Positions 1-35,554 of a DNA stretch of 38,721 bases are shown here, piece by piece. Below the pieces are notes generated by a model, which saw only the letters and a program-made list of their open reading frames with translations, was not told the origin of the DNA and made no database searches. Origin of the DNA: a virus (Duplodnaviria; Caudoviricetes); IMG/VR virus record IMGVR_UViG_3300020045_009774, positions 1 through 38,721 of that record; one strand, given 5' to 3'. The number at the start of each line of letters is the position of its first letter. The stretch's first letter is position 1. A program made the translations under genes and the position numbers.

Positions 1-144
1 AAAAAATGGAGGGACAACAACAAGGAGTTTTTAAGAGAGAAAAACAAGAAATATCAGCAGGCTAATCGAGACGCTTTAAATATGAAGAAAAGAGAAAAGC
101 GAGCTAATGAAAGGTCTTTAAACTTAGCAGTATCTGATTTGTAA
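1..144 (+). CDS. 3' end of a basic, low-complexity phage protein (partial)
   Basis: Frame 1 open from the window edge to TAA 142-144 (KKWRDNNKEFLREKNKKYQQANRD...); Lys/Arg-rich repeats like those often flanking HNH domains. Confidence 0.5.
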   Translation, partial: KKWRDNNKEFLREKNKKYQQANRDALNMKKREKRANERSLNLAVSDL

Positions 145-279
145 AAAGACAATCACATGGTTATAATTGCCCTGTAATTTTCAGAAAAGCCGTTGCTGGA
201 CTTAATGAGAATCCTATTTTGATTTATATAAAAACCCCGCTTTTAGTCATTGCAGCAACCGATGACACGCGGGGTTTTT
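139..279 (+). promoter_or_regulatory. sigma70 promoter + paired-loop leader RNA, copy A
   Basis: TTGTAA-17-TATAAT (139-167); hairpin-1 loop GTTGCTG 192-198; nested stem AAAAACCCCGC/GCGGGGTTTTT with loop CAGCAAC 253-259 (exact complement). Confidence 0.75.
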
Positions 280-292
280 GTTGGATAAAGAA

Positions 293-499
293 ATGAAAGG
301 TTTTATTGAAGTAACTACACTAAAAAGCAATTCATTGGCATTGATTAACATTAATCACATTATTTCAGTCAATGAATCGATTGAAGATAATGAATCGCCA
401 TCATCACTTATGTATATAAATGGCACTGATGCAGGGTATCTTATAGTCAGAGAAGACTATATGTCTGTGCTGAAAAAAATACAGGCAGCAATGGAATAA
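293..499 (+). CDS. hypothetical protein (moron-like)
   Basis: ORF; ATG 293 directly after leader A preferred over TTG 278. Confidence 0.6.
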   Translation: MKGFIEVTTLKSNSLALININHIISVNESIEDNESPSSLMYINGTDAGYLIVREDYMSVLKKIQAAME

Positions 500-502
500 A
501 TC

Positions 503-958
503 ATGCAAACAAAGAAAGTAACGATCCCATACGGCGCGGACAAAGGAAAAATTTTTACCGTGTCCACGTTTCCCGCTTATGCTGAGTATCTATTCGCACA
601 GGAAGCAATACACTACTTCGGACAAGGAACGCTTAATGCCGATGAGTGGCAAGGTACAATTGCAATTAGCGGATTAATTGACTTCTTTTATAAAAAGTTT
701 GGCGGTGAATTACCGAAAAGTGACGACCCATTGCACGATATGCGTTTGATGGTTGTTAAGGCTATGCGGTTTCTGTCTACTGAACACTTTAAGAAATTGA
801 GCGACAAACTACTAAGCACGGTGCTTTTTATCAATGACAAGGGGCAGGAAGTGGACTTTATGCTTGATACGCAAATCACTGACGCACGAAACATTGCTTA
901 TTTAGTCGAGGAGGCAATAACGCTACACACGGATTTTTGGTGGGGCGTAGACCGCTAA
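503..958 (+). CDS. tail assembly chaperone (G-like)
   Basis: Upstream of tape measure; N-term GxDKGKxF motif typical of chaperones of small myoviruses; overlapped by a -1 frame ORF. Confidence 0.7.
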   Translation: MQTKKVTIPYGADKGKIFTVSTFPAYAEYLFAQEAIHYFGQGTLNADEWQGTIAISGLIDFFYKKFGGELPKSDDPLHDMRLMVVKAMRFLSTEHFKKLSDKLLSTVLFINDKGQEVDFMLDTQITDARNIAYLVEEAITLHTDFWWGVDR

Positions 959-1167
959 ACCTACGCCCATTCTCACAGACAGACAAGCACAAACACGCTG
1001 ATAATGTCGCGGAAACGGTTAATATTCATCCTTACTTTTCGCTACTTATCACCAACTGCTTAGCAACATTGCACGAATTAAAAACAGTCTATGATATGCG
1101 AGACGTTTACGACTTATTAGAGATTATCCAAGTTAATAATTACAACAAGGTTTTATTATCATCATGA
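937..1167 (+). CDS. tail assembly chaperone C-terminal extension (T-like, probably by -1 frameshift)
   Basis: -1 frame relative to 503..958; LATLHELKTVY..DxYDLLEIIxVNNYN motif; candidate slippery GGATTTTT 931-938; no clear RBS of its own. Confidence 0.65.
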   Translation: MVGRRPLNLRPFSQTDKHKHADNVAETVNIHPYFSLLITNCLATLHELKTVYDMRDVYDLLEIIQVNNYNKVLLSS

Positions 1168-1424
1168 AAACAAGAGCAGAAAGAGAAGCGGAATACAATC
1201 GTAAAGAACGGGAAGATAAGGCGCGAGCGGCTGAATTTGCAAGAAAAGCAAGCAACGGACACGCGTGGGGAATGGCGGTTTTAATAGCTGGGGCAATCCT
1301 TGGGTTTCTTTTTTATTTTACTCTCGATAGAGCGCAAAAAATAACTGCCGCCGATGAGTTTTATAATGCACACGGTTATTATGAGGCAGGAACGCCGCCA
1401 CAGTATAGACAGATAGGGCGTTAA
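1164..1424 (+). CDS. small membrane protein
   Basis: One hydrophobic helix WGMAVLIAGAILGFLFYF; ATGA overlap with upstream stop. Confidence 0.6.
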   Translation: MKTRAEREAEYNRKEREDKARAAEFARKASNGHAWGMAVLIAGAILGFLFYFTLDRAQKITAADEFYNAHGYYEAGTPPQYRQIGR

Positions 1425-1433
1425 GTCGATTAG

Positions 1434-1460
1434 AAAAGCCCCATTTATTGGGGCTTTTTT
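1434..1460 (+). terminator. intrinsic terminator
   Basis: AAAAGCCCCA-tttat-TGGGGCTTTTTT. Confidence 0.8.
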
Positions 1461-1461
1461 G

Positions 1462-1577
1462 TGTTATAATTTTTTTGTGCTTTTCTGTACCGTGTCGAAT
1501 ACGTTAAAGAAAAGTGCATCACTTTACGTTAAGCCCGTTTACACTGATAATTCGACTGTCAGTATTGCGGGTTTTTT
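1462..1577 (+). promoter_or_regulatory. extended -10 promoter + paired-loop leader RNA, copy B
   Basis: TGtTATAAT 1462-1470; hairpin-1 loop GTCGAAT 1494-1500; nested stem AAGCCCGT/GCGGGTTT with loop ATTCGAC 1550-1556. Confidence 0.75.
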
Positions 1578-1590
1578 GTTGGATGAAATT

Positions 1591-1986
1591 ATGAGAGAAA
1601 GAAAAGCGGTTAATATATCACTTCCTTATGTTCCTTATTTTATTGGAACTAATATAAAGTTTATTGCTCAATACGCAATAAGCGTTGATGAGGTTCGTGG
1701 CGATATGGCAACAATGAAGCAATTAGCCGATGATATTAATGATGCTATCGACTATGTAAATATCATAGTCGATAGAAGACTGAACAAGTCAATTTTTGCC
1801 GCATTAAATTCTTGGTGCGTAGAAGCAACTAAACGAGGGTTCTTGTTTTGCGATATACACCATAATTCAATGCGTAATGCGCCTATAAATCAACAGTCAG
1901 TTGTTTTTTTAGAGAGAATTGGCGAGTTAAAACCATATTTGTGTGGTGTGTGGGACGGCACAACAGGTTGGATGGAGTCATTATGA
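1591..1986 (+). CDS. hypothetical protein
   Basis: ATG 1591 after leader B; the track start at 1459 runs through the promoter and leader. Confidence 0.6.
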   Translation: MRERKAVNISLPYVPYFIGTNIKFIAQYAISVDEVRGDMATMKQLADDINDAIDYVNIIVDRRLNKSIFAALNSWCVEATKRGFLFCDIHHNSMRNAPINQQSVVFLERIGELKPYLCGVWDGTTGWMESL

Positions 1987-2378
1987 AAACGAGCGTAGAA
2001 TTACAAAAAAGACCATTTGAAAAAGGCGATATGGTTATCGGGGTTAATGATAGTGGCAACCTTTGCACTGGAAGTGTGGTATCGACAAACACAAATAGAG
2101 GTGTTTTATTGTCACTAAATCATGCGTTATTCCATGATAGTGATTGCGATATTATTACCATACGCGCACCAAGAAAAGGCAGTAAAGATGCAAGAAATAT
2201 TGTGGCTATGTTGTGCAAAGTATGGAGGGGGCATTTATCAGATATTCTCGATTATCATATACAATGCAATGACTCAGTTTTTTCACGATCTCTGTTTTGG
2301 CAAAGACGAAAAGAAAAAGAGTTTAATAGCCACAGCTCTTTTTTGCATTATGAAAAAGCAAAATCAATGCTTGAGTAG
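1983..2378 (+). CDS. hypothetical protein, paralog of 15521..15886
   Basis: ATGA coupling; shares KRPF.GDM, IR.PRKG..ARxIVAML and KAKSML with the minus-strand gene at 15.5 kb. Confidence 0.7.
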   Translation: MKTSVELQKRPFEKGDMVIGVNDSGNLCTGSVVSTNTNRGVLLSLNHALFHDSDCDIITIRAPRKGSKDARNIVAMLCKVWRGHLSDILDYHIQCNDSVFSRSLFWQRRKEKEFNSHSSFLHYEKAKSMLE

Positions 2379-2381
2379 CGA

Positions 2382-2490
2382 TATAATGTTTATGGATTCG
2401 CGTCCTAACTGAGAAATTAAACGAAGCCAGATTTTATAGAACGGGGTTATTTCTCACCCACGCGAACGTTCTTTAAGTCTGGCTTTTTTT
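2382..2490 (+). promoter_or_regulatory. promoter + double paired-loop (C4-like) leader RNA, copy C
   Basis: TATAAT 2382-2387; TTCGCGT 2397-2403 pairs ACGCGAA 2460-2466; TGAGAAAT 2410-2417 pairs ATTTCTCA 2449-2456; outer stem AAGCCAGA/TCTGGCTT + T tract. Confidence 0.7.
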
Positions 2491-2491
2491 A

Positions 2492-2971
2492 TTGATTAAT
2501 TCAATAGACTGAAAACCGTCTATTCTTATAAAACAAGGGCTTGGAACATTTGTGGCTAAGCAACTGGTTTATTCTTACGCAATGTAGCTAAGCTCTGAAT
2601 TTGCGCTGCACGTTATTGATACTTTTGACGCGGTTGCCACGCAATCTGTTCGAGAGCTGAAAAAGTTCCAAGCTGTCATCGAGCAACAAGCAGCTACAAT
2701 GGAATTGTTTGATAAGCGTGAGCCGCGTGATTTAAAGTCGCTAGCCGTTATTCTTGATAAGCCATCGTGTTATGTGCAGGTTGACCACGAAGTGCTAGAG
2801 AGACACGGCTATTTAACCAGCAAGGATTATTGGCAAAAATACACGGTTAAAACACCCACGGATAAACTTGGTAGCCTTTGTATTGGACGCAAAGGCAACA
2901 CGCTACTCTATGACCCGAAAATAAAAGAGTTGATTAGATTGCTACACGAAACAGAATCACTTTTTAACTAA
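2492..2971 (+). pseudogene. KilA-N domain (antirepressor-like) gene remnant
   Basis: In frame with ORF 2699..2971: QGLGTFVAKQLVYSYAM*LSSEFALHVIDTFD matches the KilA-N C-terminal motif with the conserved Trp as TAG 2585-2587; another TGA at 2510; N-terminus missing. Confidence 0.75.
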
Positions 2972-2978
2972 ACAAACT

Positions 2979-3002
2979 AAGCCGCTACCAAGCGGCTTTT
3001 TT
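2979..3002 (+). terminator. intrinsic terminator, followed by -10 TGcCATAAT for the tape measure gene
   Basis: AAGCCGCT-acca-AGCGGCTTTTTT. Confidence 0.8.
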
Positions 3003-3035
3003 ATGCCATAATATCAGCCATTTTAGGGGAAAAAC

Positions 3036-4847
3036 ATGATTATTGAAGAAGCTGAAATTGTCCTGAATTTTGATGGCAACAAGGTATCAAAAGGTCTCAA
3101 AGACACCAAGAAAGGGATAACCGACTTAAATCAAGATGCCAGTAAATTTGGTAAACATATCAGCAGCACGCTTGGTGAAATAAAGAATGTCACTGGTGAA
3201 ATATCAAAGGTAGGTGCGGCTCTTGGCTTGGTTGTCGGTACTACAGACTACATTAGACAGGTAGCAATTGCCACCCGTGCGACTGACAATCTCAGTAAAT
3301 CCGTGGGCATGGGTGCGGATGAGATTACCGCTAATCGACTGGCTAATGAACGACTTGGCATTAGTATGGAAGCGACTAATACTATCATGGCTGAACGCGC
3401 ATCAATACAAGCTAGACTAAACACGGGCGGAGACGCTGTCGCATTGCTGGGGCAAGATTTTTCGGCGCGGGGTGGTAATGTCAATGTTATGCGCACTGGT
3501 AGCTACGATGAACAAATAGCTGAGTTCAAACGAATTTATGATAAAACCATTGCAACAAGAAAAGATTTTAACAAGGAAACACAAGCACAAGCAGAATCCT
3601 ACGCGTCTAATCTGAACATCACAGGATGGCAAGAATTATTGCCTATTTTGCGAATGACTAATGATGAATATCGCAATCTGGTTAATACGCAAAAAGAACG
3701 CTCTGGAATTACAGATGAAAATACCGAAGAAGCCAAGAAATTAGCCGCTGAGTGGTCGGCGGTAAGTAGCAACATTAGTTTGTTAGGTCAAAAAACAGCC
3801 AGAACATTAACCCCTGCTACCACGGGTTTTGCCAAGTATTTAAACTATGCCACGAAAGATTCTAAAACGCTTGGCGATGAAATGTTTAAGCTTAACCCTG
3901 TTTTAGGGGTGATGGTTAAAACAATGAATCTAGGCGGTGAAGCCATTGATTATATGAACAATGGCTGGGCTAAAATGTCAGCTTATATCAGGGATATAGC
4001 TGGTTTTTCGCCGCTTGGAAAATTAGGAGAGAATATTAATAATGCACTGCCAGAAAGCGTATCTAATGGTATCGGCAGTGGAATTGCTCATATATTAGCG
4101 GCTGGGGGTAACGAGGAAGCAGGTAACGCAATAAAAATTAATGCGACTACCGACGAACAGAAAGAAAATATGCGTATGGTGTATGAAGCGTATAAAAAGC
4201 AAGGACTAAGCCATAACCAAGCGGCAACGATGACCAGTGAAGTCGGGCGCGAAAATGACTTTAATTCTAAGTTTATGTTCGGCACACATACCGATAAAGC
4301 AGGTGGACAGAACATCGGCATGATTTCAATGCAAGGCGATAGAAATCCCGCGCTACAGGAGTACATGAAAAATAGGGGGCTAATGAAAGGCGGCAAAATG
4401 GAACACTCGCAAGCGGCTATCGATGCACAGGCGGCTTTCCAAGTTGCTGAAATGAAAAGCGGTAAATACCCAAAAGCTGAGGAGTTTTTATCTAAGCCAG
4501 ACATAGGACGCAATGAGGGTAGTGAGCTTATGGGGACTGGGTATGTAAAATGGGCTAAGCATCAAACGCGATTACGCAACGGCGAATCATTCAACCCCGC
4601 GCCACACCTTGCCAAAGAATACGGGTATTATGATGCTGTTAACAAAATGCAACAACAACCCCCATCAATCGACACCAAAGCTCTTGCAAACCCACAAGCA
4701 CAATCAGCACAAGGGGCAACTACCACCAATAACGTGACAATTAACCTGCCAACAACTGACCCAGCGCAGGCGGGTAATGTGATTGAATCGCAACTAAAAA
4801 ATGTATCTAAAAACGCGCCATACCGCAGCGGAATGAACCCATCATGA
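3036..4847 (+). CDS. tape measure protein with C-terminal tail lysozyme-like domain
   Basis: 603 aa helical Ala/Gly-rich protein between chaperones and baseplate; GLSHNQAA...EVGRE.DF...GMISMQGDR resembles phage tail lysozyme. Confidence 0.85.
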   Translation: MIIEEAEIVLNFDGNKVSKGLKDTKKGITDLNQDASKFGKHISSTLGEIKNVTGEISKVGAALGLVVGTTDYIRQVAIATRATDNLSKSVGMGADEITANRLANERLGISMEATNTIMAERASIQARLNTGGDAVALLGQDFSARGGNVNVMRTGSYDEQIAEFKRIYDKTIATRKDFNKETQAQAESYASNLNITGWQELLPILRMTNDEYRNLVNTQKERSGITDENTEEAKKLAAEWSAVSSNISLLGQKTARTLTPATTGFAKYLNYATKDSKTLGDEMFKLNPVLGVMVKTMNLGGEAIDYMNNGWAKMSAYIRDIAGFSPLGKLGENINNALPESVSNGIGSGIAHILAAGGNEEAGNAIKINATTDEQKENMRMVYEAYKKQGLSHNQAATMTSEVGRENDFNSKFMFGTHTDKAGGQNIGMISMQGDRNPALQEYMKNRGLMKGGKMEHSQAAIDAQAAFQVAEMKSGKYPKAEEFLSKPDIGRNEGSELMGTGYVKWAKHQTRLRNGESFNPAPHLAKEYGYYDAVNKMQQQPPSIDTKALANPQAQSAQGATTTNNVTINLPTTDPAQAGNVIESQLKNVSKNAPYRSGMNPS

Positions 4848-5410
4848 TAACGACACCTATAGACCCGATTATTGAGCTGCCGACAATTACCATCAATGCG
4901 GTAGCGGCATTAGCCACAGTTAAACAGCGGCGTTTTTACCTACTTACAATGGACGATTCCCCCGTGCTTGAATGGGATGGTGGATTGGCTTACGATAATA
5001 CAAACACGTCTTTTATCATTGATGACCCGATAGAGGGCGGTTTTACGTCTCATGATAAAGTTCGTAGCCCGCTATCCTGTACTATTTTTGCCACGGCAAC
5101 AGACCCGCAAAGACGGCGGTTATTTTTAGAGGAAGCCGAGGCGGCTGTTGACAATGTTACTTTGTATAAATTAGTAACGCCCGACATTACGCACACCAAT
5201 TTATCAATCGTAGGCGTTAATGGCTATCGAAACCCCGATAACTTTTATTCGAGCGTAGGCGTGTCGTTTAAATTGCGAGAGGTACGGCTAAATGGCAATA
5301 CCCGCATAGACAAAACCGCAGAACCCACGGCGGCTAGTAGGACGCATAATGGGCAGGTCACGCCTATAATAATGCCCCCAGTAACAACATTTCAGGCGGT
5401 AACGATATGA
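4844..5410 (+). CDS. baseplate / tail-tube initiator (Dit-like) protein
   Basis: Follows tape measure; PIEGGF.S.DKV.SP and LYxLVTPD...N motifs; ends LREVR. Confidence 0.7.
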   Translation: MITTPIDPIIELPTITINAVAALATVKQRRFYLLTMDDSPVLEWDGGLAYDNTNTSFIIDDPIEGGFTSHDKVRSPLSCTIFATATDPQRRRLFLEEAEAAVDNVTLYKLVTPDITHTNLSIVGVNGYRNPDNFYSSVGVSFKLREVRLNGNTRIDKTAEPTAASRTHNGQVTPIIMPPVTTFQAVTI

Positions 5411-5700
5411 TGTTAAAAATACCGATAACAGCGCACCCAAACCAAGTTTTTGACGTTGCTATTAATAATCAATACTGCACGATAACCCTACTACAGCGCG
5501 ATAATGGCTTGTATTTTGGACTGGTATCTAATGGCTTGCCCGTGTGTGATAACGTGCTGTGCCTTAATAAGCAACCTGTTATTTTTACTGACTATCGCGG
5601 GTTTATTGGGTCACTGACTTTTTATGATAATCAAGGCGATACCGCGCCAGTTTGGGATGGGCTTGGTAGTCGGTTTGAGTTGATTTATGAGGCGCGATGA
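5407..5700 (+). CDS. small baseplate (plug-like) protein
   Basis: IP...PNQ.F.V.I..Q.C.I.L.QR..GLY and P.WDGLGSRF.L.Y motifs typical of this gene position. Confidence 0.7.
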   Translation: MMLKIPITAHPNQVFDVAINNQYCTITLLQRDNGLYFGLVSNGLPVCDNVLCLNKQPVIFTDYRGFIGSLTFYDNQGDTAPVWDGLGSRFELIYEAR

Positions 5701-5817
5701 TTAAAACCTAATTGTCAATCGGTGATATAATACGCACACTATCTGGGTGTTGGCTTAGCCCGATAAACAAACGCACAGAACCTTATTAGTCTATTTTAAT
5801 TAACTTTTAATTTAGGA

Positions 5818-6090
5818 ATGGAAATGCAAAGCATTGAACCACAAAGAAAAGCATCGTCTGACGTTATGATTGATAGCGTTAATGATTGCTTAGATAGACT
5901 GTTAATCTTGGTTGAAAGAGCTAGTGACAAATTAAAACCAGTAAGACTTGATATTTCCAAGCTTGCCGAATCTGGACAAAAATTAAAACAGCAATACCCA
6001 CCATTAATGGAAACCGTTTTAGGTAAGTGCGAAGCCCTCAATGAGCTAATGGATAGGCTCGAACACATTATTGAGACAGTTGATTTGTAG
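5818..6090 (+). CDS. hypothetical protein (moron inside baseplate operon)
   Basis: ORF with AGGA RBS; upstream TATAAT 5726-5731. Confidence 0.6.
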   Translation: MEMQSIEPQRKASSDVMIDSVNDCLDRLLILVERASDKLKPVRLDISKLAESGQKLKQQYPPLMETVLGKCEALNELMDRLEHIIETVDL

Positions 6091-6105
6091 GTAACAAAGC
6101 TATAC

Positions 6106-6160
6106 CCATCGGGCGGTCTTATAATCCGTAGCTTTCGCCAGCGTTCCCGATGGTCTTTTT
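6106..6160 (+). promoter_or_regulatory. branched hairpin with T tail (possible C4-like element, copy F)
   Basis: CCATCGGG/CCCGATGG outer stem enclosing two small hairpins; loop TCGCCA complementary to TGGCGA 6163-6168. Confidence 0.45.
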
Positions 6161-6187
6161 AATGGCGACTATTTGACAGGCAATAAA

Positions 6188-6604
6188 ATGAAATTAAGCA
6201 AAACAAAATTAGCGATACTAACCGTATTGGCATCAAGCAAATATGACTTATCGAGTCGTGAAATATTTGAAACACTAATCGTCATCAACAAAGATTTTGA
6301 GTGTATCCCATCAATTGCCAATTTTTTAGAAAACCTAAAGAACAGCGGATATATTGAAAACGGACTTTCAGAGATAGTTAATCGCAAAACGGTTTTGATG
6401 TGGCGAGTTTCCGATACTGGCAGGGCGTTAATTAAAAGCAATAACGATGAAATTGTGGAAGCCGAATCGCCTACATCATTATTTCACAGCATCGAAAACT
6501 TAGATGAAAAAATCGGCACACTGCACAAGCTATTAGATATCGTACCCGATGAATGGGTTGTTTTGCTGAATGGAATTATTGATGATTTGAGTCGCACAGC
6601 ATGA
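6188..6604 (+). CDS. putative winged-helix DNA-binding protein (moron)
   Basis: ILTVL...LSSREI...IANFLENLKNSGYI...WRVSDTG winged-helix pattern. Confidence 0.55.
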   Translation: MKLSKTKLAILTVLASSKYDLSSREIFETLIVINKDFECIPSIANFLENLKNSGYIENGLSEIVNRKTVLMWRVSDTGRALIKSNNDEIVEAESPTSLFHSIENLDEKIGTLHKLLDIVPDEWVVLLNGIIDDLSRTA

Positions 6605-7491
6605 CAACCGAATTTAAAGAAAAGCTAATAGAAGTTACCATCGAATTTTGGAGCGGTATCGGCTATTCCGAAAAAAAGACTTTTTCAGGGTTGCACATAA
6701 AAGCACACATTGAAAACCTTGGTAGTGGTGGACAGTCATTTGCAACGTTGCACATTTTTGGAATGTCACACGCCGATATGAACCGACTAACAGTCACAGG
6801 GGCGATTAATCAAGATTTTATTGCTAAGCATAAGGTCATGGTAGCGGCTGGGGAAGCTGGTGGCTTGATGCAAGTGGTACACACTGGGGCGATTGATATT
6901 GCTTATATTGATAGTCAGATACAACCATCACGCGCTTTTGTTATCGAATCAAGAACCGCGCTTACTGAACAACTAACCGCCGTTAAAGCCACATCTTTTG
7001 AGGGTAGCAAGCAAGTATCGGCTATTCTTTCCGAGCTGGTAAAGGATGCTAATTTAACACTTGTGGATAAAGGGATTGGCGCAGCACCCCTTGATAATGC
7101 TTACTTCACCAGCGACCCAATATCTAAAATAAAAGAATGTTGTGAATCTGTGGGAATTGAATACGATATTAATAACGGATTTTTAACAGTCTGGTTATCT
7201 GGCAAGGAGCAAAAAAGCGGTATTTTTGTTAGTGCGGCTTTTGATAATGCGCCTTTAATGATTGGTACGCCATCCTGTGCAAGCAATATTTTAACGGTTG
7301 CTACTCAGTTTTTTACAGGGTTTAAATTATCAGAGCATTTTGAGATTAAAAGCACACGCAATGAACCTGCAAGCGGTCTATGGATACCTAACAAAATCTC
7401 TTATGATTTGGAGTGTTTAAATCCTAAAGGCGGTGGACTGTGGCGTACTGTTGTGGATTGTTTTAAATTTATCGGAGGTCAAGGTGGATAA
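6601..7491 (+). CDS. baseplate hub protein
   Basis: Size and position before spike; A.L.IFGMS..DMN.L, G.I..AY.D and M.G.P motifs. Confidence 0.75.
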   Translation: MTTEFKEKLIEVTIEFWSGIGYSEKKTFSGLHIKAHIENLGSGGQSFATLHIFGMSHADMNRLTVTGAINQDFIAKHKVMVAAGEAGGLMQVVHTGAIDIAYIDSQIQPSRAFVIESRTALTEQLTAVKATSFEGSKQVSAILSELVKDANLTLVDKGIGAAPLDNAYFTSDPISKIKECCESVGIEYDINNGFLTVWLSGKEQKSGIFVSAAFDNAPLMIGTPSCASNILTVATQFFTGFKLSEHFEIKSTRNEPASGLWIPNKISYDLECLNPKGGGLWRTVVDCFKFIGGQGG

Positions 7492-15445: not shown

Positions 15446-15461
15446 CTAAATTTTAGACAAT

Positions 15462-15496
15462 AAAAAACCCGCTAAGCCTTACGACTTGCGGGTTTA
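15462..15496. terminator. bidirectional terminator between convergent operons
   Basis: AAAAAACCCGC...GCGGGTTT. Confidence 0.7.
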
Positions 15497-15520
15497 TAAA
15501 ATAGAGTTAGTGTGCTGATT

Positions 15521-18307: not shown

Positions 18308-18528
18308 AAACAACATCAGAAATACAACAAGAACTTGACGCGCTAGAATCAGAACTAAGCCGCGAATATTGCGCGTAGCGATGAAATAAGCGAGACGTTC
18401 TGGGGCATGGAAAAGACATGGTGGCGTGGCACTTGCTAAGTGTTAGCGACGCGCTTGATGTGATTGCTTTTTGTGCTAAAAAGGCACTTGGTAAGATTGA
18501 TGATAATGTTGAGAGGTGGATGATATGA
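18304..18528 (+). pseudogene. small gene with two in-frame stops
   Basis: ATGA-coupled at both ends in a single frame; TAG 18376-18378 and TGA 18382-18384 inside. Confidence 0.55.
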
Positions 18529-19189: not shown

Positions 19190-19200
19190 ACCGCACACAA

Positions 19201-19232
19201 TAAAAACCCGCTTTCGTGAGATTGCGGGTTTA
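19201..19232. terminator. bidirectional terminator
   Basis: TAAAAACCCGC...GCGGGTTTA between convergent units. Confidence 0.7.
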
Positions 19233-19978: not shown

Positions 19979-20047
19979 GATAAACCCGCAGGTTTGAGCA
20001 TTGTTAAGAGGCTTTGCGGGTATTGTTGTTGGCAATTATACACTACT

Positions 20048-26532: not shown

Positions 26533-26665
26533 TTGGTAATAAACTACTAATGTAGTAAACTAACAGTGTCTTAAAAATTGCGTGTGGAAGCGTAACATTT
26601 TAAGGCATAAAAACCTTAGCCCCATTATTTAGCGGTCTTCCACCCGCTAGGTCTTGGGGTTTTTT
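26533..26665 (+). promoter_or_regulatory. sigma70 promoter + paired-loop leader RNA, copy D
   Basis: TTGGTA-17-TAAACT; hairpin-1 loop GTGGAAG 26584-26590; nested stem AGCCCCA/TGGGGTT with loop CTTCCAC 26637-26643. Confidence 0.75.
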
Positions 26666-26687
26666 ATTGTCGAAAGGAAAATTATTT

Positions 26688-27233
26688 ATGAGTGAAAACG
26701 AAAAAAACACAGAAGTTGCAACGGTTACCGAAGGTAAAAATGAGGTTGCCGTTAATAATAAAGGCGGCACGTTTGCAAGTAGATTTACTGAGCAAGAATT
26801 AGCGCAAAGCGATATTAATAGCGGCGCAATGATACCAGAAACAACTAGCACAAAAGCGTTGCCACTAAAACTGAATACCGAAACATGGACTCCAGAAATA
26901 GGCGAGGTGAAAGATTTTGTGGTTCTGGGCTTTGGGTTTGTAGAGTACCCCGACATGAATCCAGAAAAAGCAGCAGCAGGCGTAAAAAATCAAGTCAGAA
27001 GTGCGTTTTTAGCAGCCAGAGGAGTTGATAAGTCTGGTAATCCAGTTCTTGAAAAGTGGAACGTATCGGCAAAACGATTAGTATCAACACTGGAAGACGC
27101 ATCACAACGCGGGTACATTGTTTTGGGCAACTCAAAGATGATCGTCCGCATAACGCTGGTGGGTAAAATTCGCAATAAAACGAATGCTTTTAGCTCTGAC
27201 AACTACGACGTTGAGCTAGTTCCAAACTTCTAA
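26688..27233 (+). CDS. putative ssDNA-binding / recombination protein
   Basis: Directly upstream of the exonuclease; beta-rich, OB-like pattern (W.PE.GE...); AGGA RBS; function inferred from context. Confidence 0.45.
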   Translation: MSENEKNTEVATVTEGKNEVAVNNKGGTFASRFTEQELAQSDINSGAMIPETTSTKALPLKLNTETWTPEIGEVKDFVVLGFGFVEYPDMNPEKAAAGVKNQVRSAFLAARGVDKSGNPVLEKWNVSAKRLVSTLEDASQRGYIVLGNSKMIVRITLVGKIRNKTNAFSSDNYDVELVPNF

Positions 27234-27281
27234 TAATAACGCCGCGTAGTCGCAAGCTACGCGGCAAACTGGAGACAAACA

Positions 27282-28240: not shown

Positions 28241-28501
28241 ATGACCAAAAAAACAGACTTGCCAATTGGGGTCTATAAGACCCGCAATGGAAAATTCAGT
28301 GCTAAATTTTCAAGAAGGCACGTCGGTACGTTTGATACAGTGTTAGAGGCTAGTAAAGCGTATGACGCACACGTCGAAAGAATTTCTACAGCTAAACAAA
28401 ATTACGCGGTCGCTAAAATTTACGACATTTACCAAGACTTTAGAAGTCGCGACGATGGCAAAGACCACACGCCCATATACCGCCGCCCTTGCGGTAATTA
28501 A
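28241..28501 (+). CDS. AP2-domain protein
   Basis: LP.GVY....KF.A......GTFDT..EA..AYD; ATG 28241 has an RBS, while ATG 28199 lies in a 12-bp hairpin. Confidence 0.65.
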   Translation: MTKKTDLPIGVYKTRNGKFSAKFSRRHVGTFDTVLEASKAYDAHVERISTAKQNYAVAKIYDIYQDFRSRDDGKDHTPIYRRPCGN

Positions 28502-28558
28502 ATAACACCTTCGTGCAGAAAAACTGCACGAAGAAACCACAAAAAAGGAGAAGAACAA

Positions 28559-28966
28559 ATGAACTTATCAAAAAAACACAAACTATGGCTAGCACTGGCC
28601 GCCGTAGTTTTGATGGTAGCAGAAGCAAAAACAGCTCATGCAAGAACCGAAGGCGATTGTCTTGCAAGAATATCTTTTGCGGAATCAAGGGGTGAAAGTG
28701 TAAAAGGTGTGCAGGATGTTATGAACGCCACGATTGCACACGCTAGGCAGTTGGAAATAAGCGTTTGCAAAGTCAAAGCCAAGCAATAAACACCGTCAGC
28801 AGACGTTGCGCTGTCGTATAGCTTGATAGCTAAAAGCGTCCTATCAGGTGCAATCAAGCCAAGAAACCGCGCCAATGCGTGGCGGTCTAAAGGTCAACGT
28901 GCCAAAGGTGGCGTAAGTATGGGCAGAACTGGCAAGCATCAATTTTTTTATGTCGCTCATTTGTGA
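28559..28966 (+). pseudogene. SleB/Hydrolase_2 cell-wall hydrolase interrupted by TAA
   Basis: Signal anchor, CLA...FAESRGE...G...V motif; TAA 28787-28789, then frame continues to GKHQFFY and TGA 28966. Confidence 0.75.
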
Positions 28967-29129
28967 GGTGTTGATATGACAAACCACAACCCCCCCCCGC
29001 ACAACTAGCCGCTGATAAACGGGCGCGATTCTTGTCTCTACCGACAGGCAGAAAGAAGCAATCAAACCGCGTGCAGATTGTCATTACACCTGCAAACCCC
29101 ATTGTTTATCCAGTTTGGACAATAAGAAA

Positions 29130-29514
29130 ATGAGAAAACAAAGAACCCCTACCTAAAGGCGTGTACTACGGAGCAAAAGGGACTTTTAACGCTCAATGCT
29201 CAATAGCAGGAATCTCTAAATGGTCATGCGGTCACGCCACGATTGAAGCCGCCGAATCCGCTTATAATGAAATAGCGGTGCTAAGACCGCCACGAAAAAA
29301 ACGCGTAGTGAGCTTTGAAAAAAGCCGCACTGAATATGTCGAGTATGGAGTCGAGAAAATAGGAAATACTTATGTGGTTAAGTTGCAAGCCAAGGAAATC
29401 GGCTATGTAGGCACAGCTAAAACACTTGAATCGGCTAGGGTTATGCGTGACAAAGTGCTGATTGATAGAAAAATATTTCCCCGTGCTAAACAATACAGGG
29501 GAAAGCATGAATAA
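29130..29514 (+). CDS. tandem AP2-domain protein (5' end frameshifted)
   Basis: LPKGVY...T.EAA..AY and GV....Y.V......VGT..TLE.A...RD; ATG 29130 is out of frame by one C at 29146-29149; GTG 29161 in frame. Confidence 0.55.
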
Positions 29515-29689
29515 AAAACACAGCGAACGCAACGCAGGGCGTAAGCCCACGCCAGACGGCGTAAGATTTAGCGGTGGGATGATGCCCCGTGAACTATACG
29601 AATGGGTAATGCGTGGGATAAACGGAATAAAGGGTATGGCGTTAGTAAAGGTCGCTCTTGAGTTCTATCGAGAACACCACACGCATTAA
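29507..29689 (+). CDS. ribbon-helix-helix-like protein
   Basis: RNAGRKP...MPRELYEW...LVKVALEFY. Confidence 0.5.
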   Translation: MNKKHSERNAGRKPTPDGVRFSGGMMPRELYEWVMRGINGIKGMALVKVALEFYREHHTH

Positions 29690-29738
29690 TTAATTTTTTT
29701 TGTGCTAAAATTTAGCATTTTATGTGGAGTGGGTTATT

Positions 29739-29996
29739 ATGACTAATATCGATGTAACTGTAGGTATTTTAGCAAGTCAGCTCGAAAGAGTGCGGCAGGA
29801 CATGAATGAAATAGCGGCAAAGGCTAGAGACGACAAAGAAGATAGCGACAAAGAAACAGAGGCATTGAGAAACGATGTTAATGATTTGCGCTCAGAAGTG
29901 CTAAAATACAAATGGTTAATGAGCGGGATTGTTGCGTGTTTAAGTGCGTTTGCAGCCGCTTTAAATTATATCGGGTTTGATTATTTTGAAAAGTGA
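29739..29996 (+). CDS. lysis-module coiled-coil membrane protein
   Basis: N-terminal coiled coil + single C-terminal TM helix; upstream TGtgcTAAAAT -10-like site. Confidence 0.6.
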   Translation: MTNIDVTVGILASQLERVRQDMNEIAAKARDDKEDSDKETEALRNDVNDLRSEVLKYKWLMSGIVACLSAFAAALNYIGFDYFEK

Positions 29997-30002
29997 GTGG
30001 TT

Positions 30003-30182
30003 ATGAAAAGATTATTTGCGTACCTACACGAAAGACTAAAAGAAGCTAGTACATGGCGCGGGATTATGTTAGTAGCAACGGCGGCTGGGGCAAAAATTAG
30101 CCCTGAAATGTCAGAAGCCATTATTACTTTAGGCGTTGCGCTTACTGGTATTATCGGTATCGTAACAAGTGACAGAAAATGA
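30003..30182 (+). CDS. holin-like protein
   Basis: RLKE.STWRG motif, two TM segments, near endolysin. Confidence 0.7.
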   Translation: MKRLFAYLHERLKEASTWRGIMLVATAAGAKISPEMSEAIITLGVALTGIIGIVTSDRK

Positions 30183-30352
30183 ACGCCCAACGCGATCTAA
30201 ACAAACTCGAAAAAGACAACGGAATTAAATCGGAGCTGTTTAGCGGTTGGGTAGTCACTGCCGATGATGGCACAGTTTACATGGTAAAGACATTTGCAGA
30301 GCGTCAACAGCTAGTCAAAAATTTAATCAGGATTGGTCAAAATGCCACATGA
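30179..30352 (+). CDS. hypothetical protein (57 aa)
   Basis: ATGA-coupled ORF below the track cutoff (MNAQRDLNKLEK...). Confidence 0.45.
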   Translation: MNAQRDLNKLEKDNGIKSELFSGWVVTADDGTVYMVKTFAERQQLVKNLIRIGQNAT

Positions 30353-30506
30353 CACCCGAATATTTTATTGTCATAATAACGCGTGCCAGTCACGCCACGA
30401 ATGCCTTTATCCGTCAGTGAAACCACAAACCCCCGTATTTTATGGCAAAGGCGACAATAAAGACGATTGCGAGGATTTTGTTAAATCGGAGAAGTCCAAT
30501 GACTAA
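30342..30506 (+). CDS. Cys-rich hypothetical protein (54 aa)
   Basis: ORF overlapping both neighbours (MPHDTRIFYCHNNAC...). Confidence 0.45.
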   Translation: MPHDTRIFYCHNNACQSRHECLYPSVKPQTPVFYGKGDNKDDCEDFVKSEKSND

Positions 30507-31095
30507 CATCGAAAAACTACGCGGCAAAATACCGCAAAACGTGTTTGAAGAATTGCCATTAATAATTCAAAAGCGAAACCTAACACCCTGCCAATTAGCC
30601 CACTTTTTAGCGCAATGCCATCATGAGAGTGGTGGGTTTAATCACGTTGTTGAAAATCTGAATTACAGCGCGACGCGATTGCAACAGGTGTTTCCGAAGT
30701 ATTACCCAAACAGCGCGATAGCCGCTAATCACGCTCACAAGCCCGAATTAGTCGGGGCGCGTATTTATGCTGACCGTATGGGTAATGGCGATGAGCGTAG
30801 CGGCAGTGGTTTTTATCGGCGTGGGCGCGGGTTTTTAATGTGTACAGGTGCTGATAACCAACAAGATTTTTTTGCATCTATGGGATTACCCGTCGATAGC
30901 GACCCAGAACTAATCAGCAAAGTTTACCCACTAACCAGTGCGGCGTGGTATTTTGACGAGCGCAAAGTGTGGCGCGTATGCGGTGAACCGACTGAAAAAG
31001 CAGTATTGGCTGTTACGCGGTTGGTGAATGGCGGTGTTAATGGGATTGATGATAGAATCAATTTGTTTAATTATTATTTTGACTTGTTGAAATAA
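30499..31095 (+). CDS. endolysin, glycoside hydrolase family 19
   Basis: AHFLAQ..HESG.F...ENLNYS, R.GNG, RGRG, SA.WYF, NGG.NG..DR; GGAG RBS before ATG 30499. Confidence 0.9.
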   Translation: MTNIEKLRGKIPQNVFEELPLIIQKRNLTPCQLAHFLAQCHHESGGFNHVVENLNYSATRLQQVFPKYYPNSAIAANHAHKPELVGARIYADRMGNGDERSGSGFYRRGRGFLMCTGADNQQDFFASMGLPVDSDPELISKVYPLTSAAWYFDERKVWRVCGEPTEKAVLAVTRLVNGGVNGIDDRINLFNYYFDLLK

Positions 31096-31856
31096 TGGCA
31101 ACTATTGAGCTACATAACCGCGATTGTTTAGAGGTTATGGAGGGGATTGATGATAGCAGTATTGATTGCATAATTTGTGACCCGCCGTATTATTCTACTA
31201 GCTTACATTTTGATAAAGCCGTGCGAATTGATTTTAAATCGTGGCTATTGGAGTGCCAAAGGATATTAAAGCCGTCGGGAGTATTGATTAGTTTTGCTGA
31301 TTTTAATCTTCTTGCTGAATTGCGTGGACACAAAGTATTCAAATGCACCTATGAATTAATCTGGGAAAAAACAATGGCGGTTGGTTTTTTAGATGCAAAT
31401 ATAAGACCGTTGCGAAACCATGAATTTATTGGTGTGTTCACGGACGCATTGAAGCTATCGACCTATAATCCGCAAAAGACTAAGGGCGCGGCTTACGCGC
31501 AAAAAAGCAGGGCTGGGCGTATGGCACACACCAATAAAATGAGGTCTTGCTCAATAGAAAACACAGGCGACCGCCACCCCGTAAGCGTATTAAAGTTCAG
31601 CAATAACAACAACGGTTCACTGCACCCAACACAGAAGCCATTAGACTTAGTAAGCTGGTTAATAAACACCTTCTCAAACGAGGATGATGTGATTTTAGAT
31701 TGCTTTTTAGGAAGTGGCACAACAGGACACGCCTGTGCAAATCTTAACCGCTCATTCATCGGAATAGAAATAGACTCTGCTTATTTTTCGATAGCCAAGG
31801 CGCGAATAGAAAACGCACAGCACGATTTAGTTAATTACTTTGGGGAGTTGGTATAA
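31095..31856 (+). CDS. DNA methyltransferase, N6A/N4C beta class
   Basis: DPPY ... HPTQKP ... LDCFLGSGTT ... GIE. Confidence 0.92.
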   Translation: MATIELHNRDCLEVMEGIDDSSIDCIICDPPYYSTSLHFDKAVRIDFKSWLLECQRILKPSGVLISFADFNLLAELRGHKVFKCTYELIWEKTMAVGFLDANIRPLRNHEFIGVFTDALKLSTYNPQKTKGAAYAQKSRAGRMAHTNKMRSCSIENTGDRHPVSVLKFSNNNNGSLHPTQKPLDLVSWLINTFSNEDDVILDCFLGSGTTGHACANLNRSFIGIEIDSAYFSIAKARIENAQHDLVNYFGELV

Positions 31857-32018
31857 TGCCCCCCCCAATTAACTTTTACAGCGTCCCCAGCCGTGACTGA
31901 TTTGACAATGCGCACTGCGTTAGGCAACATAGCAAAGACACTGCTATCAGTTGTGGCGCGGTGCGTGTTGGCATTAGGTGCAAACCAATGAATTTTTAGG
32001 ATTTAATGAAAATAGGTA

Positions 32019-32294
32019 ATGAAAGACGACAAAACCACCGACATATTTACTGATCCGCTCACTCTTGACGATTGCGACTTGCAAACTAAAGACGGGCGTT
32101 TGCGCGGGTTAGAGAAAATTGCAAAGTGGGAATTAACTAAGCCAATGGAAAAAATTAAAGCAATTGAGATTATTGGTAAAATTGATGGTGATTTTGTTGT
32201 AAAAACTGAGATAAAGCATAGCGGAGGAATAAACACTAAGCCAATTCAAGAATTGACGGACGCAGAACTTGACAGAGTTATTAGCGGCGGCTAA
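32019..32294 (+). CDS. terS: terminase small subunit (short form)
   Basis: Overlaps terL; KIKAIEI.GK..G.F..K.E..SG....LTD.EL C-terminal pattern; no N-terminal HTH visible. Confidence 0.6.
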   Translation: MKDDKTTDIFTDPLTLDDCDLQTKDGRLRGLEKIAKWELTKPMEKIKAIEIIGKIDGDFVVKTEIKHSGGINTKPIQELTDAELDRVISGG

Positions 32295-33651
32295 ATCAGA
32301 ACGCGCTTTGCGATTAGCGCGTTCTGATTTTTGGCGGTTTCGCCTGTTGATGCACAAACATCTGAAAATTGGCTGGTGGCAAAAGGAAGTTAGCTATAAA
32401 CTACAGCAATTCCACGCCGATTATAAAGATGGTTTACGCCCCCAGCTAATCATCACAGCACCACCGCAACATGGAAAAAGCACTATTATCAATGACTTTC
32501 TTTTGTGGTCTATTGGAAAAGATAGCGAGGCAACAGAAAGCGAATTAAAAATAATCTACGCTTCTTTTAGTGATGCTTTAGGGGTTAGAGCTAATCGGCG
32601 CATTCAAAGATTTTCAGCAACAAAACGCTTTCAGGATGTATTCCCTAAGTTCACACCAACTCACAAAACCCTTGATTTAATTCTGTATGGTGAAGATGGC
32701 TATTTCAGAAATACCACCATCGGCGGGGCAATTACGGGCGAATCAATGACGTGGGGGGTTATAGATGATTATACCAAGGGCAGGGCAGAATCAAACAGTC
32801 CAACAATACGCGATAAGGTTTGGGAGTGGTTCACGTCGGACTTTAGCACTCGATTTAGTGATGATGGGGCGTTTCTTTGCATCTGTACACGGTGGCACGT
32901 TGACGACTTAATCGGGCGTTTGGTTGAAATGAAACCCAACACCAAGGTTTTAAAATATCATGCCATTGCAGAACATGACGAACCGAACCGCAAACAGGGT
33001 GAGCCGCTATTCCCCGAACACAAAAGCGTTGCGTTTCTGAACGACATTAAGTCTGTCATGAGCGCAGCGGCATGGAATAGCCTTTACCAGCAAAACCCAA
33101 CGATTGCCGAGGGTAACTTTTTCAAACCTGATTTTATCGAAACCGTTGACACCTATCCAAGCAGCTTACAATTTGTCAGGGCGTGGGACTTTGCGGGAAC
33201 AGCAAACGGCGGCGATTATACGGTAGGCGTTAAAATAGGTTATGATGTTGCAACAAAAACGGCTTATATCGTTGATGTGGTACGCGGTCAATACGCACCC
33301 GAAGATGTTGAAAGGTTTTTACTATCAACCGCACAAGCCGACGGCAGATTGGTAAAAATACTTATCCCTCAAGACCCTGCGCAAGCTGGAAAATATCAAG
33401 CCAAGAATTTTGTTAAAATACTCAGTGGTTTTAGCGTGATTGCGGACAGGGTTACAGGAAGCAAGGAAACCCGCGCCAGTCCAGTAGCCGCACAGGTGAA
33501 TATTGGGAATATCAAAATGTGTCGGGGTGTGTGGAATAAGTCGTTTATTGAGGAATTGCGATTATTCCCCAACGGCGTAAACGATGACCAAGTTGACGCG
33601 TTTAGTGATGCGTACAATCATTTTATTAACAAAAAATCATACTCATTCTGA
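32269..33651 (+). CDS. terL: terminase large subunit
   Basis: Walker A PPQHGKS, Walker B VIDD, TRWH, YQQ.P, WD.A, DDQVDA. Confidence 0.95.
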   Translation: MTELLAAAKSERALRLARSDFWRFRLLMHKHLKIGWWQKEVSYKLQQFHADYKDGLRPQLIITAPPQHGKSTIINDFLLWSIGKDSEATESELKIIYASFSDALGVRANRRIQRFSATKRFQDVFPKFTPTHKTLDLILYGEDGYFRNTTIGGAITGESMTWGVIDDYTKGRAESNSPTIRDKVWEWFTSDFSTRFSDDGAFLCICTRWHVDDLIGRLVEMKPNTKVLKYHAIAEHDEPNRKQGEPLFPEHKSVAFLNDIKSVMSAAAWNSLYQQNPTIAEGNFFKPDFIETVDTYPSSLQFVRAWDFAGTANGGDYTVGVKIGYDVATKTAYIVDVVRGQYAPEDVERFLLSTAQADGRLVKILIPQDPAQAGKYQAKNFVKILSGFSVIADRVTGSKETRASPVAAQVNIGNIKMCRGVWNKSFIEELRLFPNGVNDDQVDAFSDAYNHFINKKSYSF

Positions 33652-35405
33652 TGCTAAACATATTCCGAAAGAAAAAACCTAAACATCCAGACATCATCGG
33701 TGAAATAGTCGATAAACTAATGCTACCCGACACTATCGGCGAAACGGTTTTTGTTGGTGATGACGCGTCAATATCAACCGATGAAAGCGGCGTGTTAAAC
33801 ATTGATATTTTGCGCTATTTTGCGCGGTGCAATTACCGACTGACACCGCAAATACAAGAGGAGCTTGTCAAGTATTGGGCTATTAATCGCGCGTGTTTAA
33901 TGCCCGTACAAGACTGCCTGCGCAATGGGTACGAACTGATAGCCGAGGCTCAGGAGCAAGTACCAGACACGCACATAAAAGCCATTGCGACTTTTAACAA
34001 GGAGTTTGGTTTTGACGAGCTCTTAGAGGATACGCTTTATTATTCGCGTGTCTACGGTATTCGTGTGTGTGTTTTTCAATTTGACGGATTAACACCTGAA
34101 CACTACGAAAACCCTATCAACTGGGAGACATTGAAAGGTTACAAGTACAAAGGCTTCTTTGCGTTATCACCTCAATATTGCGTCCCTTCCGATTTTGAAT
34201 TTAATGACCCTATGAGGTTCAGACAGGTTAATTACTGGCGCGTAGCTAATCAAAAGTATCATCATTCGTGGGTGCGTATCGTTCACCACGCCAAAGTACC
34301 CCCTAACCTGCTACCGCAATATTTAGGCGGTGGTGTTTCGTTGGTGCAAGAAATTTACGAACACATTTACCAAGCCAATCAAGCAAGTAATGAAGCCCTG
34401 CAAATCTTATTCACTAAGAATATGACGGTACGCAAGGGCGATGTACAAAGTGCATTGTTAGACCAAGCGGGTTTTGAGAATAAAATATCGTTCTTTTCAA
34501 GATTGACAGGGCAATTCAGAACGCTGTTTTTAGGCGAAAATGAAACCTACGAAAACGTAGAGAAATCATTGCAAGGCGTAGAAGATGTGCGCGGCAAAAT
34601 GTGGGAAATGTGCGCAGCGGTTGCAAAAATCCCTAATAATCGATTCATGATGACGCAATTAACAGGCTTTGCGGCAAGCGGTGAAGCTGAGGATAGAATC
34701 TACAATACATCGAATTTAAGCACTTTGCAGGTTAAAATTAACCCTGTTATTGAGTTCCACAACAAAGCCATTTTGATAACTAACGGACTGGATTGTGAAG
34801 ATATTACAATTCAATGGAATAAATGTGGCGCGTTGACAGAAGTTGAATTAGCGGACATTCAAGGTAAGCGGATTGCTAACGATGTGCAGCTGGTTATATC
34901 TCAAATCATATCCCCTGAAAAAGCCGCTGAGCGTTTGAGCAAGGATAAGGATAGTGGGTATGCGCACATTGATTTGACTGAGTTAGAATCGGAAGATGAT
35001 GTGTTGGACGGGCTTGATTTTTCTATGTTTGAACAGCCGCAAACGAAACAAAGTGAATCCGCACAGCCAACACAAACAGCCGACAAAAGCACCACCACAG
35101 CACAAGCCCATTTCATGGCAGCGGCAGCACATAATCCAGAGTTTGCAAAAGAAGCGGGTATTCCGCAATCCGTGGCGCGTGAATTTAATGAAGTCGACAC
35201 CAAAGACGAACGCCCACTACAGGCAGGAGACATAATCACTCTAGGCGGCTATGACGTACTAATCGAAAATCCAGCGGGTAGCGTAAGGACTTGGACGGAT
35301 TCAACAGGGCGTAGAGGCGATAGCGTTATGACTTGCCATTATGGGGAATTACAGGGGTATAGTGGGGCTGATGATGATTATTTGGATATTTTTATTGTCT
35401 ATTAG
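33651..35405 (+). CDS. portal protein (DUF1073-like) with C-terminal extension ending in the N-half of an InPase domain
   Basis: After terL; R.YG, HHS, G.S..Q, A..IP...G..ASGE motifs; tail AAAAHNPEFAK..GIPQSVA.EF and IENP.GS.R...HYG...G.GADDD..DIF. Confidence 0.9.
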   Translation: MLNIFRKKKPKHPDIIGEIVDKLMLPDTIGETVFVGDDASISTDESGVLNIDILRYFARCNYRLTPQIQEELVKYWAINRACLMPVQDCLRNGYELIAEAQEQVPDTHIKAIATFNKEFGFDELLEDTLYYSRVYGIRVCVFQFDGLTPEHYENPINWETLKGYKYKGFFALSPQYCVPSDFEFNDPMRFRQVNYWRVANQKYHHSWVRIVHHAKVPPNLLPQYLGGGVSLVQEIYEHIYQANQASNEALQILFTKNMTVRKGDVQSALLDQAGFENKISFFSRLTGQFRTLFLGENETYENVEKSLQGVEDVRGKMWEMCAAVAKIPNNRFMMTQLTGFAASGEAEDRIYNTSNLSTLQVKINPVIEFHNKAILITNGLDCEDITIQWNKCGALTEVELADIQGKRIANDVQLVISQIISPEKAAERLSKDKDSGYAHIDLTELESEDDVLDGLDFSMFEQPQTKQSESAQPTQTADKSTTTAQAHFMAAAAHNPEFAKEAGIPQSVAREFNEVDTKDERPLQAGDIITLGGYDVLIENPAGSVRTWTDSTGRRGDSVMTCHYGELQGYSGADDDYLDIFIVY

Positions 35406-35420
35406 GTTGTATAAAAAAAC

Positions 35421-35554
35421 TTGACATTTTGACTTAGTTTGTTATTATGAGCGCGTTATTGAAATTCTGCGTTCAGGCTTAAATTCAATAACGGTCGTTA
35501 TTACTAAACCCCGTTTCTAGGTAAGGCTGAACACTTACCACGCGGGGTTTTTTT
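35421..35554 (+). promoter_or_regulatory. sigma70 promoter + paired-loop leader RNA, copy E
   Basis: TTGACA-16-(TGt)TATTAT; hairpin-1 loop GTTCAG 35471-35476; nested stem AAACCCCG/CGGGGTTT with loop CTGAAC 35527-35532. Confidence 0.75.

Follow-up and report, generated by a model that had tools for sequence, protein, structure and literature searches.

What do five intergenic leaders do in one phage genome when each is built around short loops that could pair with one another? The window analysed here is the whole linear virus record IMGVR_UViG_3300020045_009774 (38,721 bases, estimated to be 62% complete), whose baseplate, terminase, portal and primase genes and three tRNAs mark it as a tailed phage. 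In a first-pass annotation, five of its regions (hereafter A to E) were described as copies of a single layout, with a sigma70 promoter, a long hairpin 1 and a terminator-like arm whose tip loop is the reverse complement of the hairpin-1 loop. All six loop complements listed there are exact and lie where they were placed, at 192–198/253–259 in region A, 1494–1500/1550–1556 in B, 2397–2403/2460–2466 and 2410–2417/2449–2456 in C, 26584–26590/26637–26643 in D, and 35471–35476/35527–35532 in E. Judging from sequence, A, B, D and E represent one leader family, real and uncatalogued, with four copies in the window and not five, and region C follows a separate design.

A descriptor combining a T tract, a GC-rich outer stem and an inner hairpin with a loop matched by a 6-mer further upstream was run over both strands of the window and returned exactly regions A to E, all intergenic and all on the plus strand. 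The same descriptor found a mean of 0.7 sites and a maximum of 4 in 40 block shuffles, a control that is lenient because the descriptor was designed after the five sites were known. Additionally, the fold energy of each region lay at z = −4.1 to −5.6 relative to 200 shuffles.

The plan common to A, B, D and E begins with a −10 element and hairpin 1, which starts at the predicted RNA start and carries, at +17 to +19, a loop of 6 nucleotides (nt). Next, a linker of 13–22 nt leads to a GC-rich outer stem of 5–6 base pairs (bp), an internal loop, an inner stem of 6–9 bp closed by a loop of 7–8 nt, and finally a U tract, with the start codon ~20–28 nt past the beginning of that tract. The geometry is constant, with 98–109 nt to the U tract and arms of 15–18 nt in the firm copies, and the plain fold leaves the complementary loop segments (boxes) mostly unpaired (0.56–1.0). 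A simple terminator scan omits these arms as their insert is too long; the conserved G–C pairs together with the U tract nonetheless suggest an intrinsic terminator. The proposed sigma70 promoter was recovered in full, with −35 and −10 sites, only for A and E in the promoter scan. The elements of the others were read from the sequence: a TG-extended TATAAT in B, a TATAAT in C and a weak TTGGTA-17-TAAACT in D.

Related records were gathered by terminase and pattern scans of the viral collection, and four were fetched whole. Family members occur in six other phage records, with four in G001, two in G002, one each in G006, G014 and G015, and one plus a doubtful one in G010. These 10 firm relatives and the doubtful one all keep a loop match of 6–9 bases, and the firm members, including the four window copies, number 14 and carry 12 different loop pairs, or keys. 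Some relatives were first spotted by the descriptor, and all were recovered by BLAST, loop-skipping patterns or a sequence-only model. The doubtful member, G10b, was matched by the sequence model at E = 0.002, was unmatched by the structural model and is overlapped by an open reading frame (ORF).

The loops covary across these copies. All 78 loop cells over 13 copies pair (77 of them Watson–Crick), with 2–5 pair types per column, and a whole-loop permutation over 12 copies gave 72 observed against a mean of 41.5, a value reached in none of 200,000 trials. With windows placed at set distances from promoter and U tract, and hence blind to loop letters, complementarity of at least 6 bases was found in 15/15 cognate pairs and 0/206 non-cognate pairs. 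A tool count on a model-made 10-row alignment gave a percentage paired and a covariation score that beat all 500 shuffles. The G001 ortholog of copy D is 82% identical and has two compensated key changes, and that of copy A has an identical key. Conservation is highest at the terminator base, where B-like copies are identical at 45/48 and 48/48 positions. Of 13 copies, 12 fold better on the plus strand than on the complementary one, which is what G–U pairs in an RNA would produce. Collectively, these comparisons show a conserved two-arm fold with a covarying 6–9-base loop match; the proposal that loop pairing is under selection was borne out in the related phages, whose leaders have kept the complementarity and not lost it.

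Downstream of each copy come a U tract and an ORF start, and every firm copy stands directly before an ORF start, as the annotation had held in assigning each copy its own cassette. KilA-N lies behind leaders in G001 and as the second gene in G002; Rha in G002, G014 and, split, in G006; helicase–methylase genes behind copy E and, in G001, behind a B-type leader; other copies precede a methylase (G010) or ORFs of no family. The Rha-like gene behind the G006 leader consists of two ORFs (L038, 1995–2572). Because the gene sets behind the leaders differ among phages, leaders and cassettes appear to have been shuffled against each other, with cassette exchange at or near the leaders and T-rich microhomology common to the junctions. 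Two members on the minus strand (L092, 543–644; L093, 2499–2600) have a 9-base key with a 6-base palindrome, whose loop could self-pair with a second copy; the genes behind them are a Rha gene and a short ORF.

The D leader gave only short matches (25–34 nt) to cultured phages, and no leader copy was present in the two nearest named records. Among stretches matching a D-type pattern, 21 of 22 from metagenomes and 14 of 15 from genomes were inspected by eye and held no member, the two uninspected ones looking like duplicates; 2/6 viral stretches were unrelated. Seven loci whose genes are distantly homologous to the one behind D lack a leader there, and no copy was found in G003, G004, G005, G009 or G011–G013, which are mostly fragments. 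Weak model matches at 15451–15509, at its G001 counterpart and at G010:881–987 were dropped as plain terminators. The hairpins at 15451–15509 and 19200–19232 of the window are terminator-like and share the CCCGC/GCGGG base of the leaders without an upstream partner loop.

We compared the family with known RNA regulators. Rfam (Rfam 15) gave no match on any of the five regions, at gathering thresholds or at E ≤ 5, and the C4 model matched 0/5 records at E ≤ 1. An exact downstream complement of the tip box within 250 nt was absent from 12 of 13 copies (region C excluded), the single match in the other being at the non-cognate level. No opposite-strand promoter-like site was detected within 150 nt downstream in any of 13 copies, by a consensus scan that can miss weak promoters. 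Plasmid antisense attenuators of the pT181 type use a counter-transcript from an opposite-strand promoter, and the leaders differ from them in having no such promoter-like site. Since no Rfam match, no second site downstream and no antisense promoter was found, A, B, D and E are not members of the C4/CI group, and the kinship with C4 and CI suggested earlier does not hold up: the Rfam search was blank and no site resembling seqC or a2b2 lies downstream. The family belongs to none of C4, CI, IsrK and guanidine-IV, since for each of these it lacks a defining feature that was tested. It resembles guanidine-IV in topology and possibly CI in logic.

The closest mechanistic precedent is the guanidine-IV riboswitch and not C4. 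Passages on this riboswitch (GGAM-1/mepA motif) describe a first loop that kisses the terminator loop, in competition with a stem extension by which the linker is shortened (PMC7736828, PMC11611296), and it is also described in passages of PMC10907184. As in the leaders, the hairpin-1 loop in those accounts pairs with the loop of an intrinsic terminator upstream of a gene, and the kiss is proposed to hinder completion of the terminator. The same passages give guanidine-IV highly conserved guanidine-binding loop bases and mostly sugE-type exporter genes, unlike the leaders. The latter have free loop letters (2–5 pair types in every kiss column), a perfect match, several keyed copies per genome, and KilA-N, Rha, helicase, methylase or unassigned genes downstream in place of sugE/mepA-type genes.

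The P4 CI RNA, according to passages of PMC4825925, is a short RNA derived from a leader, with a loop complementary to its own upstream site (seqA, beside a downstream seqC) and a role in termination control. The loop 1 box is the counterpart of the seqA-like site in 15/15 copies. Unlike CI, the leaders show no downstream seqC-like site and no likeness in sequence or to Rfam models, and the partner loop is the terminator tip itself. CI also has a part in maintaining lysogeny; no sign of lysogeny genes was seen in the 5 records of each search, of which one is complete. For the C4 RNA of P1/P7 (RF01695), passages of PMC5320573 report short loop boxes that set specificity and covary between phages, as in the family; antirepressor-type genes downstream are a feature shared with some copies, and region C is likewise two-boxed. 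The leaders have two arms and one box pair rather than three stem-loops with loops a′ and b′, region C has its two boxes on one arm, and there is neither a box over the ribosome site nor a match to the C4 model. C4 itself is matured by RNase P into a stable form. IsrK of Salmonella Gifsy-1, in passages of PMC4825925, has, as is predicted for the leaders, a promoter, a short RNA and a terminator, with read-through into an antirepressor operon, and its short RNA targets the longer form of the same transcript in trans. It differs in its long pairing with the downstream orf45 and in activating translation, the leaders having a 6–9-base upstream loop pair. No IsrK-like downstream partner was found for the tip box, the only segment tested, and no Rfam match.

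The literature yielded no description of the element in titles and the beginnings of abstracts, and the passages of two Weinberg surveys (PMC2864571, PMC5737381) contain nothing alike, the supplement of PMC5737381 lying outside that coverage. PMC10690425 is a catalogue of 8495 unnamed IMG/VR candidate RNAs; its supplements likewise fall outside this negative and may list part of the family.

How, then, might such leaders work? By analogy with guanidine-IV, we consider, with roughly even confidence, that A, B, D and E are ligand-free attenuators in which a kiss in cis would hinder closure of the terminator and so allow transcription into the cassette. Going by the consensus sites, a host sigma-70-type polymerase would start 17–19 nt before loop 1, hairpin 1 would fold first, and the arm before the U tract would serve as an intrinsic terminator. 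Loop 1 would then pair with the tip box of the emerging terminator, and the kissed, stretched form, as proposed for guanidine-IV, would strain the linker so that the GC-rich terminator base closes less often. Rough geometry over 12 copies lets the kiss fit in all of them with the outer stem open. With the outer stem closed, a straight or mildly bent kiss needs 82–101 Å, and the linker reaches 66–90 Å in D-type copies, 102–114 Å in the B and E types and 126–138 Å in A. In 5 D-like copies the linker falls short of, or barely reaches, what a closed terminator would require unless the kiss is sharply bent, which gives partial support to competition between kiss and closure.

The 3′ strand at the base of hairpin 1 can also base-pair with the linker, forming an alternative hairpin of 5–7 bp whose letters differ by subfamily, a feature absent from the first-pass annotation. 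It caps the 3′ fragment of 12 of 13 copies, as well as of the two copies found later, with modest statistics (Fisher p = 0.016 over the 7 least related copies). It would form only with the 5′ strand removed or held, giving a 65–70-nt RNA that lacks loop 1 and has its tip free. Passages of PMC4825925 and PMC5320573 present IsrK, CI and C4 as short leader-derived RNAs acting on their own transcript, and CI and C4 as cut out of their leaders. A 3′ fragment of 65–70 nt capped by the alternative hairpin would parallel that excision and could pre-empt the cis kiss. More speculatively, terminated RNAs, or this capped 3′ piece, would keep the tip free to pair with loop 1 of new leaders bearing the same key, blocking their cis kiss, so that a cassette would be shut after an early burst by its own released RNA in trans. 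Different keys would then stop mobile cassettes (KilA-N, Rha, helicase–methylase, the exonuclease operon) from silencing each other. The full proposal, that these leaders represent an uncatalogued and widespread class of phage switch which needs neither protein nor ligand, is opened by the cis kiss, is closed by its own released RNA and carries a rewritable 6–9-letter key, is one we put forward tentatively and regard as doubtful.

The keys of the window are distinct in silico, with cognate pairs at −8.3 to −9.8 kcal/mol and crossed pairs at −4.3 or weaker, and full-match crosses number 0/28 within a genome as against 5/128 between genomes. The proposed orthogonality therefore stands as far as the much stronger cognate pairing goes, and selection for distinct keys lacks support. 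This is among the points that weigh against ligand-free attenuation. Mean cross-pairing was 3.36 within and 3.20 between genomes (p = 0.72), so that no selection for orthogonality was detected, and crossed pairs of 5/6 bases do occur within one genome. Variability in the inner stem equals or exceeds that in the loops (33–44% vs 52–56% identity), which fits a constraint on structure only; one D-type row of this comparison was mis-anchored in the linker and outer-stem segments. A fixed-column count on the model-made 10-row alignment paired just 46% of kiss cells, several rows being out of register. The alternative hairpin is 0.1–10 kcal/mol weaker than the full hairpin 1, and p values for single copies range between 0.007 and 1.0; the helix scored by the script in A, D, G2_x and G2_D is not that of the fragment fold. 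The steric reasoning is crude; it fails for A, whose 22-nt linker leaves ample slack, and is marginal for B and E. Finally, a perfect ligand-free kiss might give constant read-through and not a switch.

Other explanations share parts of this evidence. Kiss and terminator may coexist in a compact fold, the kiss strengthening termination or protecting the RNA, so that the terminated 100-nt RNA would be the product (a decoy, protein ligand or stable small RNA) and leak-through would feed the genes. Arms matched in length (15–18 nt) suit side-by-side packing, the closed form fits 11/12 copies if the kiss is sharply bent, and loop letters are free provided they pair. We nevertheless think this unlikely, as the position of every firm copy directly before an ORF start, with several copies per genome, suits a role in cis, and the only studied kiss with a terminator loop, that of guanidine-IV, is antiterminating in the passages compared. 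Rop and ProQ/FinO read the shape of kissing complexes. A phage or host protein of this kind could stabilise all kisses alike, making the leaders a co-regulated delayed-early switch whose keys drift neutrally. Such a protein would account for conserved geometry with unconserved letters, for the failure to detect selection for orthogonality and for the lack of conserved bases in the loops from which a ligand pocket could be built. The movement of leaders between loci and divergent phages instead suits a self-contained device, and we judge the shape-reading protein quite unlikely.

The leaders may also be immunity RNAs of the C4/CI type, in which a processed 3′ piece acts only in trans, represses antirepressor-type genes in the lysogen and excludes phages with the same key. 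An upstream site complementing the loop of a short RNA recalls seqA and CI, KilA-N or Rha stands behind copies in G001, G002, G006 and G014, region C is two-boxed like C4, and few letters separate the P1 and P7 specificities in passages of PMC5320573. This reading is set back by the blank Rfam search, for C4 or any other model, and by the missing second site downstream in 12 of 13 copies, the single exact match being at chance level. Moreover, searches for a tyrosine integrase, a resolvase and an S24 repressor were negative in 5/5 records each, one of them complete (G006), and a classical temperate life style is on that account not indicated; we regard an immunity role as very unlikely. The loop matches could, at the extreme, be by-products of inverted-repeat mutation in terminators or a structure for recombination at the DNA level, a view that would suit the exchange of cassettes near leaders and the T-rich microhomology at junctions. 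That complementarity is limited to the loops and stops before the flanks, is kept over 12 keys at a fixed distance from a promoter-like site, and accompanies better folding of the plus strand in 12 of 13 copies makes this explanation highly improbable.

Region C (2382–2492, plus strand) is where the shared layout claimed for five regions gives way, having been sustained for A, B, D and E. A TATAAT at 2382–2387 is followed by 5′ boxes at 2397–2403 and 2410–2417 and by a terminator arm on the same strand, with an outer stem at 2424–2431/2478–2485, partner boxes at 2449–2456 and 2460–2466 and a U tract. There is no long hairpin 1, just a 4-bp 5′ hairpin, and the two 5′ boxes would pair as one nested duplex (−16.6 kcal/mol) with the loop and a bulge of the arm. 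Region C was matched by neither family model and had no relative among the related loci compared; it is best seen, from its sequence features, as a two-box terminator-leader design in its own right. The KilA-N gene behind it is 5′-truncated. The remnant (2483–2971, plus strand) matches residues 49–210 of the intact G001 KilA-N at 85% and has two stops near its start, and an ORF at 2699–2971 remains open. The same locus in G001 has a D-type leader before the intact KilA-N gene. Leader B, two ORFs and region C have, in the window, taken the place of that D-type leader and of the first 48 KilA-N codons.

The four window copies all lie on the plus strand. Copy A has a promoter-like TTGTAA-17-TATAAT at 139–167 (10/12 consensus matches) and a leader RNA at 174–282, with a predicted start at ~174, hairpin 1 at 177–212, loop box 192–198, outer stem 235–240/269–274, loop box 253–259 and U tract 275–282. 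Its ATG at 293 opens a 68-residue ORF of no family, followed by a tail assembly chaperone. Copy B has an extended −10 (TG-n-TATAAT) at 1462–1470, read from sequence, and a leader RNA at 1477–1579 with hairpin 1 at 1477–1517 (loop box 1494–1500), the alternative hairpin at 1511–1525, an outer stem from 1534, loop box 1550–1556 and U tract 1572–1579; an ATG at 1591 begins two ORFs of no family. A terminator-like hairpin at 1431–1461 (plus strand) overlaps the −35 region of copy B, and the same hairpin lies 5′ of another leader in G001. The combination of a terminator hairpin across the −35 region and a TG-extended −10 is seen at 1431–1461, at 18391–18436 of L022, near 8460 of L023, and in L092 and L093; this pairing before several leaders looks like an insulated promoter module in the tail operon.

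Copy D has the weak promoter-like TTGGTA-17-TAAACT at 26533–26561, its G001 ortholog having TTGGCG-17-TAAAAT in the same place. The leader RNA (26568–26667) comprises hairpin 1 at 26568–26606 with loop box 26584–26590, the alternative hairpin at 26601–26618, an outer stem from 26620, loop box 26637–26643 and U tract 26660–26667, and an ATG at 26688 opens a phrog_14584 protein followed by a YqaJ exonuclease. Copy E carries a promoter-like TTGACA-16-TATTAT with TG at 35421–35448 (11/12 consensus matches). Its leader RNA (35455–35555) has hairpin 1 at 35455–35492 with loop box 35471–35476, the alternative hairpin at 35487–35502, an outer stem from 35509, loop box 35527–35532 and U tract 35548–35555, and the ATG at 35568 begins a helicase, N6/N4 methylase and DUF7220 cassette. 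A terminator-like hairpin marks the end of the helicase–methylase cassette at 38189–38218 (strand unspecified). This cassette, within 33651–38578, separates two halves of an InPase domain, the end of a portal fusion covering profile positions 14–67 and an ORF at 38273–38578 covering 75–134. The latter, the 3′ half, has a ribosome site and a TATAAT of its own near 38237, and an identical T-rich motif stands at both ends of the cassette.

Even the nearest terminases from cultured phages share no more than 44% identity with that of the window, the primase relatives are likewise distant, and a terminase search of GTDB found no prophage relatives. Elsewhere in the window, a strong Rfam abiF match (RF03085, 57.4 bits against a gathering score of 37) lies on the minus strand at 19984–20020, just 5′ of the three tRNA genes; no AbiF-type gene was noticed near it.

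In the literature passages compared, guanidine-IV is the sole switch in which a loop kisses a terminator loop, and it depends on a ligand. The phage leaders share its topology, have free loop letters and occur several times in a genome, which makes them a natural variant set for testing how a loop kiss affects an intrinsic terminator, and an element of ~100 nt is within reach of a simple in vitro transcription assay. If the trans step is true, it would account for the repressor-free timing of accessory phage cassettes and would offer compact, keyed transcription switches for synthetic biology. If the reading as a switch class is true, one phage would run several independent timers, and its mobile cassettes would carry their own addressable control.

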